Made by a program: the position numbers and the translations under genes. 59,556 bases of DNA from Gemmatimonadota bacterium. GTDB taxonomy: Bacteria > Latescibacterota > UBA2968 > GCA-2709665. The notes below the pieces were generated by a model. It saw only the letters and a list, made by a program, of their open reading frames with translations, did not search any database and had not been told where the DNA came from. Numbering within the stretch: the stretch's first letter is position 1; each line of letters begins with the position of its first letter. Positions 47,740-50,979 of this stretch are shown here, piece by piece. Location of the stretch: positions 24,245 through 83,800 of the forward strand of contig PAQK01000010.1 in the NCBI GenBank assembly GCA_002709665.1, in the 5' to 3' direction.

Positions 47740-48447
47740 CTACGCAAGCAATTCTGTATAGCCAAACCCTATGGCCTTCTTGACTCGTTCCAGCGTGTGC
47801 TGACCTTGGACTCTTGCTTCTGAACACCCAAGATTCAGGACGTCTCCGACAAGACCGGGCACTTTCTCCAGCTGCTGGCGCCTGGACTCGAATTCTTCTC
47901 CCAGCACACAATTGCAATCGCCTATTCCGGTGTAAATCGACGTAGGCTTGTGAAAGACATCCCCAAACCTTTCATTAAATTGTCCCGCCAGGCCTTGAGC
48001 CAGCAGAATACGATCCTCTTGATCGACCCCAACAGGTACGAGGGTGGGCCCGAACATCAGTATATACGCTGCCTGGAACAGAGAGTAACCAAGGTGCCCA
48101 TAAGTAGTGTCATCCAAACTGTCCTTCCCCAACAGCCTTTTAACCTGAACAAGGTTACTCAAGATGGATGCGAGTTCAGCAAGTTGTGGAACCTGGGATT
48201 GTAGGAAGCAAATACCACGCTCCAAATTGAAACCTAGCGCCAAAGCATCCAGAACCATTTCGGTGACACTGTCTTCGATATTTCGCCTAACGTAACTGCC
48301 TGATTTGAGTGTATGGTAGTCTGCTATCATCAGTAAGCAAGTATGGTCATTCTGAAGTGAGATAAGCCTACCCAGCGGGTTCGCGTAATCTTGAATGAAT
48401 GACCCAGCCGCGGGTTTAAGCCCGGTATGTGCAATTTGCCTTTTCAT
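47740..48447 (-). CDS. Truncated, catalytically degenerate tryptophanyl-tRNA synthetase paralog (TrpRS-fold pseudo-enzyme, 235 aa)
   Basis: It aligns by eye with the adjacent TrpRS: IADYHTL / IADLHTL, FLQSQV / YLQSAV, GYSLFQAAYILM / GYPVLQAADILM, LVPVGVDQED / LVPVGKDNEA, TLERVKKAIGF / TLKEVKKAMGL. HIGH is replaced by SFIQDY and KMSKS is absent. About 100 residues of the C-terminal domain are missing. It has its own GGAGAT SD and ATG. Confidence 0.75.
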   Translation of the reverse strand: MKRQIAHTGLKPAAGSFIQDYANPLGRLISLQNDHTCLLMIADYHTLKSGSYVRRNIEDSVTEMVLDALALGFNLERGICFLQSQVPQLAELASILSNLVQVKRLLGKDSLDDTTYGHLGYSLFQAAYILMFGPTLVPVGVDQEDRILLAQGLAGQFNERFGDVFHKPTSIYTGIGDCNCVLGEEFESRRQQLEKVPGLVGDVLNLGCSEARVQGQHTLERVKKAIGFGYTELLA

Positions 48448-48483
48448 GATTTCATCTCCGAAGAAGTGTTGTGGAGAATTTTC

Positions 48484-48524
48484 AAAAGAAAAAAGCCGCT
48501 GATCACCTTCCGGCGATCAGCGGC
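48484..48524 (-). terminator. Strong intrinsic terminator between trpS and the TrpRS paralog (attenuator candidate)
   Basis: On the minus strand, a perfect 10-bp stem GCCGCTGATC / GATCAGCGGC with a 10-nt loop is followed by TTTTTTCTTTT. It ends 36 nt before the paralog ATG. Confidence 0.8.
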
Positions 48525-48610
48525 TCAGTAGCACGCCAACGACGACCCGGTGTTGGCCATACCTCACCCCTTGACCAAATCCACCAAGCCCTTGTCCTAA
48601 AGGCACACAT
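48503..48610 (-). CDS. Candidate regulatory leader peptide 2 (35 aa, 5 Trp: MCAFRTRAWWIWSRGEVWPTPGRRWRATEPLIAGR)
   Basis: AAAGGAA lies 6 nt upstream of ATG 48610. Trp codons are at positions 9, 10, 12, 18 and 25. The TGA lies in the loop of the 48484-48524 terminator. The ORF is below the track's size cutoff. Confidence 0.55.
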   Translation of the reverse strand: MCAFRTRAWWIWSRGEVWPTPGRRWRATEPLIAGR

Positions 48611-48657
48611 CCAAATTCCTTTATATTCAAACGTCATTGTAACCTCGGTTCTAACCC

Positions 48658-49719
48658 CTATTCTTGGTTTTCCCTCTTTCTGTCTCTGGCTCTACGAGAA
48701 ATGCGATTCCATATTCCCGTCAAACCCATCGCCTTCTTCACTTCCTTCAGCGTCTCGTCCGCTATTTCTACGGCACGCAAGGTTCCCTCGTAGAGCACCT
48801 CCTCAACATATCCCTTGTCCTCCTCGAACTGTCTTCGACGATCTCTGATCGGATCCAGAAACGTGTTAAGGGCTGCAGTCAACTTTGCCTTCACTTCCAC
48901 ATCGCCCACTTTCCCTTCCCGGTATCTGGTCTTGAGATCTTCCACCTCATCCCTGTTCGGGTTAAACGCGTCGTGATAGATGAAAACTGGATTTCCCTCG
49001 ACCTTTCCAGGGATGTCAGCCCTCGTCCGATTAGGATCAGTAAACATTCCCCGAACACGCTTCTCGATGGTCTTAGCGTCATCTGAAAGAAGGATGCAAT
49101 TGTCCAGGCTCTTGCTCATTTTTGCCTGACCATCTGTCCCTACCAATGTTGGTACATCACCAATCATAGATTCCGGGATCGGGAAGACCTCTCCGTAGTA
49201 ATTATTGAATCGCCTGGCAATTTCCCGAGTGACTTCTACGTGGGCCTCATTGTCTTTCCCTACTGGGACCAGGTGGGACCTCGGCATCAGGATGTCGGCT
49301 GCCTGAAGTACAGGATAACCGACCAGTCCGAAAGGGATCGCTTCGTCATCCATATTCGCTGCCTTCGCCATATCCTTTATACTGGGCAGCCTGGCAACCC
49401 TCGGCAACGTCACCAACATCTCAAAAAACAGATTCATCTCGTAGACGGCGTGGACTGCCGACTGAAGGTAGATCGTCGATTTGGCGGGATCGATTCCAAC
49501 TGCCAGATAGTCCAATACCAGTTCCCGCGTGTTCTCTCTCAATGCCTCGATGTGTACCTTCTCCGGTCGGGTGGTAAGCGTATGCAGGTCAGCGATTAGG
49601 AAATAACACTCATACTCATCCTGAAGGCGGAGCCGATTCTGAAGCGAACCGACATAGTGACCCAGATGCAGCCGACCAGTCGGTCGGTCGCCTGTCAATA
49701 TTCTCTTCTTCTCACTCAT
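48658..49719 (-). CDS. trpS: Tryptophan--tRNA ligase
   Basis: HIGH motif (TGRLHLGHY), KMSKS, GYPVLQAADIL and VPVGKD are all present. ATG 49719 (MSEKKRILTG..) has AAGGAG 7 nt upstream; the track start at 49740 is a TTG. Confidence 0.92.
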   Translation of the reverse strand: MSEKKRILTGDRPTGRLHLGHYVGSLQNRLRLQDEYECYFLIADLHTLTTRPEKVHIEALRENTRELVLDYLAVGIDPAKSTIYLQSAVHAVYEMNLFFEMLVTLPRVARLPSIKDMAKAANMDDEAIPFGLVGYPVLQAADILMPRSHLVPVGKDNEAHVEVTREIARRFNNYYGEVFPIPESMIGDVPTLVGTDGQAKMSKSLDNCILLSDDAKTIEKRVRGMFTDPNRTRADIPGKVEGNPVFIYHDAFNPNRDEVEDLKTRYREGKVGDVEVKAKLTAALNTFLDPIRDRRRQFEEDKGYVEEVLYEGTLRAVEIADETLKEVKKAMGLTGIWNRISRRARDRKRENQE

Positions 49720-49742
49720 TTGTATGCTCCTTCTCGACAATG

Positions 49743-49772
49743 AAAAAACCCCTGCGGTCTGGCCGGCAGGGG
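49743..49772 (-). terminator. Intrinsic terminator in the trpS leader (attenuator candidate)
   Basis: On the minus strand, CCCCTGC-N10-GCAGGGG is followed by TTTTTT, ending 23 nt upstream of the trpS ATG. Confidence 0.75.
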
Positions 49773-49802
49773 TGAATCAAAAAGTCACTTTGTTGTCTTG
49801 AA

Positions 49803-49874
49803 TCAGTGCACGGTAAGCCAACCGGTATGATGTCGATCATACCACCAACTGCTCCGAAACCAACCGTGTACCAT
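49803..49874 (-). CDS. Candidate regulatory leader peptide 1 (23 aa, 4 Trp: MVHGWFRSSWWYDRHHTGWLTVH)
   Basis: AAGGAG lies 8 nt upstream of ATG 49874. Trp codons are at positions 5, 10, 11 and 19. An 8-bp hairpin (49824-49843) starts within the tandem Trp codons. The ORF is below the track's size cutoff. Confidence 0.6.
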   Translation of the reverse strand: MVHGWFRSSWWYDRHHTGWLTVH

Positions 49875-49913
49875 CTCAGATTCTCCTTGGAAGGTATGCC
49901 AATGCTCCTTCGA

Positions 49914-49942
49914 ATAATAGCCGAAACCACCCAACGTGTCAA
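49914..49942 (-). promoter_or_regulatory. Sigma-70-like promoter for the trpS leader (TTGACA-17-TATTAT)
   Basis: On the minus strand, TTGACA (49942-49937), 17-nt spacer, TATTAT (49919-49914). Confidence 0.5.
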
Positions 49943-49992
49943 GTTAATTGTATCTTGTCAACGATCCATACACCCTTAGGCACCTACCGACT

Positions 49993-50979
49993 TTACGCGG
50001 TCAGTAGTTTCGCCATATCCTTGGCAAAATAGGTCAATATCATGTCCGCCCCTGCGCGCTTGATGCCCAAGAGTGTTTCGACCATAGCTCGATCTTTATC
50101 CGCCCAACCTTTATCAGCCGCCGCCAGCACCATCCCATATTCTCCCGAAACATTGTAGGCGGCAATGGGTACATCAAACGCTTCCTTCGCCTTTGCGATT
50201 ACGTCAAGGTAGGGTAAGGCCGGCTTCACCATCACCACGTCTGCACCTTCCTCTATGTCCAACGCAATCTCTCTCATCGCCTCGCGGACATTTGCAGGAT
50301 CCATCTGATATGTCTTTTTGTCTTTGGGTATCCCGGACTGTTTCACTGGTGCTGACTTCAATGCGCCTCGAAATGGTCCATAGAAGCAGGACGCGTACTT
50401 TGCAGAGTAGGCCATTATGGAAACCTGCTCAAACCCCTCGTCGTCGAGGGCGTTCCGGATTGCCCCAACGCGACCGTCCATCATATCCGACGGGGTCACC
50501 CAATCGACGCCTGCCCTTGCGTGGGACAACGCCATATTGCACAACATGGCCACGCTTTCGTCGTTGGCGATCTCCCCATCAATCACCAGTCCGTCGTGTC
50601 CGTGGGTGGTGTAAGGGTCCAGAGCCAGATCCGTCTGGACACACAGTTCCGGCAGTGCATCCTTGAGTGCTCGAATGGCACGTTGTACAAGGCCATCGTC
50701 ATCGCAGGCCATTGTGGCCTTTTCATTCCTCTCTTCCGAGTAGCCGAACATGTTCACCGCACCTATGCCCAAGTCCCACAGCTCTTTGCATTCGGTCACC
50801 AATTCGTCTACCGTGTGACGAAACTGCCCCGGCATAGAATCGATCGGCTCCCTCCTGCCTTCGCCATTTGTTACAAACATCGGGTAGATAAAATCGCCTA
50901 CTGCGAGAGAAGTCTCGCGTACAAGTGTCCTTACTGGTTCGGTTCTTCTGAGTCTTCTAGGTCTGTAGGTCAAGTCCAT
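49993..50979 (-). CDS. hemB: Porphobilinogen synthase (delta-aminolevulinate dehydratase)
   Basis: The N-terminal YRPRRLRRTEPVRTLVRETSL..DFIYPMFV is typical of HemB. The active-site region includes MVKPALPYLD (Schiff-base Lys). Length is 328 aa. Confidence 0.92.
   Translation of the reverse strand: MDLTYRPRRLRRTEPVRTLVRETSLAVGDFIYPMFVTNGEGRREPIDSMPGQFRHTVDELVTECKELWDLGIGAVNMFGYSEERNEKATMACDDDGLVQRAIRALKDALPELCVQTDLALDPYTTHGHDGLVIDGEIANDESVAMLCNMALSHARAGVDWVTPSDMMDGRVGAIRNALDDEGFEQVSIMAYSAKYASCFYGPFRGALKSAPVKQSGIPKDKKTYQMDPANVREAMREIALDIEEGADVVMVKPALPYLDVIAKAKEAFDVPIAAYNVSGEYGMVLAAADKGWADKDRAMVETLLGIKRAGADMILTYFAKDMAKLLTA

Follow-up and report, generated by a model that had tools for sequence, protein, structure and literature searches.

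A conserved tryptophan-codon leader upstream of trpS in an uncultured bacterial lineage as a probable transcription attenuator

Introduction

Most documented cases of leader-peptide attenuation specific for an amino acid come from Proteobacteria and Actinobacteria and a small number from Firmicutes, such systems having been known only from the first two phyla before the Firmicutes hisS paralogs were added (Naville and Gautheret, PMC2965389). In Streptomyces, trpS (trpS2 of S. avermitilis) and leuS are each predicted to lie behind a classical attenuator, the pheST attenuator of gamma-proteobacteria being named as a precedent (Seliverstov et al. 2005, PMC1262725). Here we describe the spacer between hemB and trpS, the gene of tryptophanyl-tRNA synthetase (TrpRS), in a 59,556-nucleotide stretch of a Gemmatimonadota bacterium genome (assembly GCA_002709665.1, contig PAQK01000010.1, positions 24,245 to 83,800). 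This whole stretch is called the window, and positions are given in its own numbering. The spacer carries a short leader open reading frame (ORF) rich in Trp codons followed by an intrinsic terminator, and is probably a ribosome-mediated leader-peptide transcription attenuator of trpS set by the supply of charged tRNA-Trp. This kind of attenuator is already known, and what appears to be new is its occurrence in this uncultured lineage and in this sequence family.

Like E. coli trpL, the window leader has a sigma-70 promoter, a short ORF with tandem Trp codons in segment 1, three overlapping pairings (1:2, a putative 2:3, and 3:4, the last being the intrinsic terminator) and a stop codon placed so that a non-stalled ribosome would block segment 2. 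Unlike trpL (RF00513), to which it has no sequence or covariance-model similarity, it would govern a tRNA synthetase gene and not biosynthesis genes, its stop codon follows segment 2 instead of separating it from segment 1, the entire ORF is closed by an additional base helix, and the antiterminator would engage no more of the terminator than the upper part of its arm and the loop. The E. coli pheM-pheST leader, which senses the cognate charged tRNA, is likewise a leader-peptide attenuator before an aminoacyl-tRNA synthetase operon, but with Phe codons, in gamma-proteobacteria and of unrelated sequence. The T-box leaders (RF00230) of Firmicutes and Chloroflexota trpS have the same tRNA-Trp charging signal and the same terminator read-through as output, but bind the tRNA directly without an ORF. 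Among Streptomyces attenuators, that of S. coelicolor trpRS1 has reportedly been tested and verified by experiment (Vecchione and Sello, J Bacteriol, 2010). The Streptomyces trpS attenuators resemble the window leader in the gene regulated and in the order of a Trp-codon leader and then a terminator. They differ in belonging to Actinobacteria, whereas the present element occurs in an uncultured lineage with relatives labelled Gemmatimonadota or Latescibacterota (L097 species cluster), a well-conserved example that would broaden the range of such systems. Compared by description, they also serve an auxiliary antibiotic-resistant second TrpRS, whereas the trpS found here is canonical-looking and lies next to hemB. 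Streptomyces attenuators also use triple-complementary motifs of the GGCC/GCC type (PMC1262725).

Architecture of the hemB-trpS spacer

The promoter, Shine-Dalgarno (SD) sequence, leader ORF, hairpin and terminator that the initial annotation had described on the minus strand of this spacer, flanked by hemB (NF006762, 488 bits) and trpS, are each present where it had placed them (Table 1). No other promoter-like match than this promoter was found by the promoter scan within 48400-50300, and the leader transcript is expected to start near 49907. Trp accounts for four of the 23 leader codons, and the hairpin (H1, in RNA letters GGUAUGAU-CGAC-AUCAUACC) begins with the two bases GG of Trp codon 11. 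The terminator (-15.3 kcal/mol, ViennaRNA) begins 30 nt past the leader stop UGA (49805-49803) and ends 23 nt short of the trpS ATG at 49719; it was passed over by a simple terminator scan because its loop is above the 8-nt limit of that scan. The trpS gene has its own SD, AAGGAG, 8 nt 5' of its ATG. In the minimum-free-energy fold, a small hairpin (GAAGG-N12-CCUUC, 49891-49910, minus strand) was also seen immediately 5' of the leader SD, within the untranslated start of the transcript.

Table 1. Positions of the features discussed, in window numbering unless a relative's locus is named; peptides are given up to their stop codon
Feature	Position	Strand	Remarks
Sigma-70-type promoter	49942-49914	-	TTGACA-17-TATTAT; 11/12 consensus positions
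Leader SD	49888-49883	-	AAGGAG, 8 nt 5' of ATG 49874
Leader ORF	49874-49803	-	23 codons + TGA, read from sequence; window leader peptide MVHGWFRSSWWYDRHHTGWLTVH
Leader Trp codons	49862-49860, 49847-49845, 49844-49842, 49820-49818	-	
Tandem Trp codons W10 and W11	49842-49847	-	proposed ribosome stall/sensing site
Base helix B	49873-49863 with 49812-49802	-	ORF codons 2-4 against last three codons and stop
Hairpin H1 (core of 1:2)	49843-49824	-	perfect 8 bp, GGTATGAT-CGAC-ATCATACC
Segment 2 (putative antiterminator 5' strand)	49823-49817	-	GGUUGGC; in ORF, 12-18 nt before stop
Segment 3 (putative antiterminator 3' strand)	49767-49761	-	GCCGGCC; top of terminator 5' arm and part of loop
Intrinsic terminator (3:4)	49772-49743	-	CCCCTGC-N10-GCAGGGG + T6
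trpS, presumed regulated gene	48658-49719	-	TIGR00233, 320 bits against a cutoff of 176.75
Second Trp-rich ORF	48637-48503	-	44 amino acids, MTFEYKGIWMCAFRTRAWWIWSRGEVWPTPGRRWRATEPLIAGR; between trpS and paralog
trpS terminator	48526-48493	-	strong, 15 bp; downstream of trpS
TrpRS-like paralog	47740-48447	-	235 amino acids; without HIGH motif, KMSKS loop and most of the anticodon-binding domain
T-box leader	L080:1598-1880		Chloroflexota- or Zixibacteria-labelled relative
T-box leader	L021:830-1168		Chloroflexota- or Zixibacteria-labelled relative
T-box leader	L049:449-840		Chloroflexota- or Zixibacteria-labelled relative
Leader peptide, L081			MARGGFQRSWWWYDRYHTDRLTVR
Leader peptide, L082			MMARNGHFRGWWYESVHTGRPTVC
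Leader peptide, L083			MMARDGHVRGWWYESIHTGRLTVC
Leader peptide, L001			MKMAVRDGHSGGWWWYDFNRAGRLTAC
Leader peptide, L091			MNRVHFVKGWRWCESIRTGWLHVR
Leader peptide, L097			MAARGIHSGCWWRHDFNRTGRLTAC
Leader peptide, L099			40 amino acids, ends ...RRLWWWPGHVHTSQPTTNA
Leader peptide, L100			ends ...RFWGWWHGKIYAGRPRACQSRV

The search against Rfam gave no match at gathering score in the whole window and none credible at E <= 10 over 49650-50050, where the weak matches in the spacer covered the terminator only. Trp_leader (RF00513) had no match at gathering score in the window nor at E <= 10 over 49650-50050. T-box (RF00230) had none in the window, and the same search detects T-boxes in three relatives (L080, L021 and L049), so the method works. 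The proposal that the element is not a T-box is consequently upheld, with neither the T-box nor the Trp-leader model matching.

As a control for chance, all 436 ATG-started ORFs of 15-60 amino acids in the six frames of the whole window were considered, of which 7 (about 1.6%) contain WW and 4 have a Trp fraction as high as that of the leader. By itself the leader ORF is unusual but not decisive. What appears decisive is that the whole arrangement is kept in nine diverged relatives.

Conservation of the unit in relatives

Relatives were gathered by TrpRS protein similarity alone, so that the sampling is unbiased as to the leader. In a TrpRS scan of 185,579 species genomes, the best 80 of more than 600 candidate loci were examined, among which only L001 (an uncultured bacterium, TrpRS 80% identity) has the hemB-leader-trpS layout, and the element was not found in the Poribacteria, Latescibacterota, Armatimonadota, Chloroflexota, Spirochaetota and Planctomycetota loci listed there. 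A protein search gave closer TrpRS homologs with 81-99% identity, whose contigs added further members. A metagenome scan with a clade-specific C-terminal TrpRS fragment was swamped by a single degenerate pattern; it yielded 7 distant loci and no new member. In total, nine distinct leaders were obtained: those of the window, L081, L082, L083, L001, L091, L097, L099 and L100.

Aligning the regions upstream of trpS supports the initial reading of leader-peptide attenuation, as the whole unit recurs in nine lineages with frame, Trp codons and terminator kept and with compensatory changes in H1 and the terminator. The order of promoter, ATG and Trp-codon ORF, hairpin, stop, terminator and trpS is the same in all nine, and in L082 an intervening gene separates hemB from the element, which remains next to trpS. 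Upstream of every leader stands CTTGAC(A/G)-17-TAnnnT (for L001 and L097 read from the homologous upstream site), and a purine-rich SD-like sequence is found 5' of the leader ATG in most relatives. The ORFs have 23-40 codons. Their N-terminal half has diverged almost completely, the ATG and the in-frame stop still being kept; the window peptide ends in ...SSWWYDRHHTGWLTVH and those of relatives in ...RSWWWYDRYHTDRLTVR, ...RGWWYESVHTGRPTVC, ...GGWWWYDFNRAGRLTAC, ...KGWRWCESIRTGWLHVR or ...GCWWRHDFNRTGRLTAC.

The Trp run stands at one homologous position in 9/9 leaders and its size shifts by whole codons (WW, WWW, W-R-W or W-G-WW), with UGGUGG invariant at the aligned position in all seven core members and with the 5' arm of H1 beginning within the last Trp codon of the run across the family. 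Extra Trp codons occur at non-homologous sites, namely W5 and W19 in the window, W20 in L091 and W15 in L100. The position of the stop is constant while the codon turns from TGA to TAA in L081, and the distance from stop to terminator is 30-37 nt in the nine members, being 31-32 nt in seven. A GC-rich terminator with YCYGCCGG and then a U-tract is present just ahead of trpS in every member.

A covariance model (R1) built from the seven core members recovers every member and finds nothing further in 655 kb of TrpRS loci from other phyla, nor a second copy in the window. Together with the nine sequences, R1 would define a new RNA/leader family that can be annotated in metagenomes.

Leader helices and compensatory changes

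Four nested helices, i.e. base helix B, the three outer 1:2 pairs, H1 and the terminator, were tested on an alignment of the seven core sequences. Standard pairs fill 91.2% of the cells, compared to 34-44% with the 3' partners slid; 12 cells are changed on both sides, and the covariation score is reached by none of 500 shuffles. For H1, 94.6% of cells are paired and both-side changes are UA to CG (3 sequences) and AU to UA (2). For the terminator, 93.7% are paired, with both-side changes CG to UA and UA to CG. Helix B has 11 pairs, 85.7% paired cells and 2 pairs changed on both sides. Its register is common to 6 of the 7 core members, it is seen in the minimum-free-energy fold, and it would close the entire leader as a single long hairpin in which part of the start region is buried.

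H1 is prolonged outward in most members, where the first Trp codon and the codon ahead of the run (GGC UGG U) face GCCGGCC, so that CCGGCCGGC is the partner strand of UGGUGG and the codon before it. These extended 1:2 hairpins reach -16 to -23 kcal/mol in relatives. In the window 1:2 is essentially H1 (-11.3 kcal/mol), and an outward extension would consist of G-U pairs only. The H1 loop is variable (CGAC, UCCG, UCCA, UCUA, UUCA), and mimicry of a tRNA anticodon by this loop was ruled out since the loop is not conserved.

The putative antiterminator

Which segment acts as antiterminator had been left unsettled in the initial annotation. It is now identifiable, on sequence grounds, as the putative pairing of segment 2 with segment 3 (Table 1). 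All core members have CCGGYYGGC homologous to segment 2, GCCGG is invariant in 9/9 terminators, and in relatives CCGGCCGGC pairs with GCCGGCYGG over 7-10 bp. The 2:3 duplex has -13.0 kcal/mol in the window and -12.5 to -22.4 kcal/mol in relatives, comparable to 1:2 and 3:4. The best duplex between leader and terminator arm falls on the same homologous segments in all nine, and in the alignment the 2:3 helix is 87.3% paired compared to 5-54% when slid. At the level of sequence, the alignments establish that the parts are conserved, that H1, helix B and the terminator carry compensatory changes and that 2:3 complementarity exists in all members. The 2:3 pairing itself shows no covariation beyond shuffles and is weak in the window.

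The mutually exclusive 1:2, 2:3 and 3:4 pairings expected of such an attenuator were examined by folding with a ribosome mask, using transcripts truncated before the 3' arm of the terminator and a 30-nt footprint over the Trp codons. The overlaps exist, and masking of the Trp codons leaves the 5' arm of the terminator, in most members, bound by the segment immediately 3' of H1. For full-length transcripts at equilibrium, the same mask lowers the terminator probability from 0.98 to 0.00 in L083 and from 0.90 to 0.01-0.14 in L099, the terminator is partly lost in L082 and L100, and it remains in L081, L091 and L097. The truncated folds favour 2:3; at equilibrium a clean switch is seen in L083 and L099 only, and the window keeps its terminator.

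Proposed mechanism

We infer that the leader ORF is translated, that ribosomes stall at its Trp codons and that the switch works in the following direction. Transcription would start from the conserved promoter and a ribosome would begin on the 23-codon leader. When Trp-tRNA-Trp is scarce, e.g. at low TrpRS activity, this ribosome would stall when Trp codon 10 or 11 occupies the A site, and its footprint would hide the 5' arm of H1 (segment 1), which begins inside codon 11. Segment 2 (GGUUGGC) would be left free to pair with GCCGGCC once this is transcribed, a pairing that would remove the upper 5' arm and the loop of the terminator and let RNA polymerase continue into trpS. When Trp-tRNA is ample, the ribosome would reach the UGA, hiding about half of segment 2, or would be released, upon which the 1:2 hairpin would reform. 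Either way the 3:4 terminator would form and transcription would end ahead of trpS.

Several observations weigh against this mechanism. In a third-position coding test, codon positions 1, 2 and 3 vary alike (0.73, 0.70 and 0.74). Synonymous drift in the leader ORF was dropped as a line of evidence for that reason. The amino-acid sequence of the leader would accordingly not be under selection, as expected of leader peptides, so that there is apparently no independent coding evidence beyond start, stop, frame and Trp codons. UGGUGG sits in the 1:2 helix in most members, so that RNA pairing adds to its conservation. The 2:3 covariation is no better than in shuffles (256/500), the support for this pairing being its conserved, partly palindromic GCCGGC core, and the antiterminator of the window is short (7 bp, two of them G-U), with a duplex energy that does not clearly surpass shuffled controls (fraction 0.063). 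In the window, the equilibrium probability of the terminator is 0.92 for every ribosome position. Since the terminator persists at equilibrium, the switch in the window, L081, L091 and L097 would have to be kinetic; a kinetic choice is usual for attenuators. A ribosome at the stop covers 49820-49791, that is 4 of the 7 bases of segment 2, and segment 1 (GGCUGGU) is then able in principle to pair with segment 3, which blurs the logic of the switch. Finally, one species with a TrpRS 96% identical to that of the leader-bearing L083 has lost 158 nt between hemB and trpS. The -10 element, the leader ORF and segments 1 and 2 are gone, the -35 box is joined straight to the terminator, and the terminator before trpS is kept. 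This deletion was found in five contigs (L087:2046-2124, likewise L088, L089, L090 and L094) from four samples or assemblies and a second sample of one series, and this terminator-only variant is a built-in natural control.

Alternative explanations

A structured RNA sensed directly by a protein (e.g. TrpRS autoregulation) or by a ligand, with the ORF incidental and UGGUGG kept as a helix strand, would account for part of the data. Autoregulation of a synthetase via RNA is exemplified by E. coli thrS. The helix that CCGGCCGGC forms in most members with UGGUGG and the codon before it, the third codon position without excess variation and the location of most of the ORF inside covarying helices all agree with such an RNA. 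So does the element downstream of trpS in L081 (described below), where a change of UGG to UAG is matched by its pairing partner, indicating that helices can outlast an intact ORF. However, across the nine lineages the partner strand varies (GCC, GUC, GUU) and UGG never does, the Trp run changes by whole codons and extra Trp codons stand at non-homologous places. Despite the diverged N-terminal half, the leaders retain an ATG with its SD and an in-frame stop whose distance to the terminator is fixed, and this stop turns from TGA to TAA in place. The variable H1 loop leaves neither an anticodon-arm mimic nor an obvious ligand pocket, and no Rfam family matches. Sensing by a structured RNA is consequently considered unlikely.

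It could also be argued that the hairpin and U-tract are a mere hemB terminator, that the promoter simply drives trpS and that the mini-ORF is due to chance, without any conditional read-through. The deletion variants, in which the terminator comes right after hemB without a leader, fit this view, as does the chance frequency of WW mini-ORFs (about 1.6%). The promoter, however, lies 5' of the terminator in 9/9 members, so that every transcript from it must cross the terminator to reach trpS. ORF, Trp codons and 2:3 complementarity are moreover kept down to about 80% TrpRS identity, and in L082 the unit stays with trpS even though another gene separates it from hemB. An unconditional hemB terminator is therefore very improbable.

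TnaC needs a conserved Trp and Asp at a fixed spacing from the stop codon. A TnaC-like arrest peptide sensing free L-tryptophan in the exit tunnel, and not charged tRNA-Trp, would be in keeping with the recurring motif W-W-[Y/C/R]-[D/E/H] and with the fairly constant C-terminus T-G-R-L-T-V/A-C/H/R-stop, but can be given hardly any credence, given that the residues after WW (YDRHHT, YESVHT, CESIRT, YDFNRA) follow the needs of the H1 stem with compensatory base changes and so appear to be set by RNA pairing and not by the peptide, that there is no signature of selection at the amino-acid level, that no C-terminal Pro is conserved among the leader peptides, that L099 and L100 have unrelated C-terminal halves and another WW-to-stop spacing, and that terminator and antiterminator suit stalling at the codon level, induction of a synthetase by free Trp making little regulatory sense.

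Second Trp-rich ORF and TrpRS paralog downstream of trpS

Between trpS and a gene for a short TrpRS-like paralog, a second Trp-rich ORF was found. Of its 44 codons 6 encode Trp, WW-I-W among them. The ORF traverses the hairpin of the strong trpS terminator, having its stop codon in the 3' arm, and the equivalents in L082 and L097 likewise read through their terminators. The region is strongly structured (z = -4.2), a conserved hairpin has UGGUGG as its 5' arm, and compensatory changes are seen in the terminator. In L081 the second Trp codon of this element is TAG, its pairing partner is changed to match and the paralog is truncated.

The 235-amino-acid paralog, which lacks the motifs listed in Table 1, is presumably catalytically dead. 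A paralog follows trpS in L082 (234 amino acids), L097 (276 amino acids) and L100 as well as, truncated, in L081, and none was found after trpS in L001, L083 and L091. Since these three bear the leader, the trpS leader is independent of the paralog. Short TrpRS paralogs similar to that of the window occur in other uncultured lineages, and its nearest full-length relatives form a separate group of 332-amino-acid TrpRS (45-47% identity, compared to 31% for the adjacent trpS).

The layout of the second ORF suggests a polarity opposite to that of the trpS leader, as translation through the hairpin would block termination. It is conceivable, if doubtful, that trpS stands between two Trp-codon sensors of opposite polarity forming a two-switch homeostat for tRNA-Trp charging, an arrangement undescribed so far. 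The upstream leader would lift trpS transcription when charged tRNA-Trp is scarce, and only an unstalled ribosome, at ample Trp-tRNA, would melt the 15-bp terminator and allow transcription into the dead paralog. If true, the paralog would be a pseudo-synthetase induced by Trp sufficiency, e.g. a TrpRS regulator or inhibitor or a Trp-binding factor. The second Trp-rich upstream ORF and the dead paralog hint at a richer Trp-tRNA homeostasis, and they are a more novel lead than the trpS leader.

Other trpS upstream regions

T-box leaders were detected in Chloroflexota- and Zixibacteria-labelled relatives (Table 1), that of L080 being immediately upstream of trpS. Related TrpRS genes are thus under different sensing systems in different phyla, which amounts to a swap of T-box and leader peptide for a synthetase gene between organisms with TrpRS about 65-80% identical. 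Two Poribacteria-like loci (L002:2600-3000 and L067:2600-3000) share blocks upstream of trpS, e.g. GATGGAGAC..CGGCATGACAGGCGTTT and GTAGGTTAGTAGGAAGGGTCGAT. No Rfam match and no Trp-rich ORF was found in these upstream blocks, which may represent a different, undescribed trpS leader.

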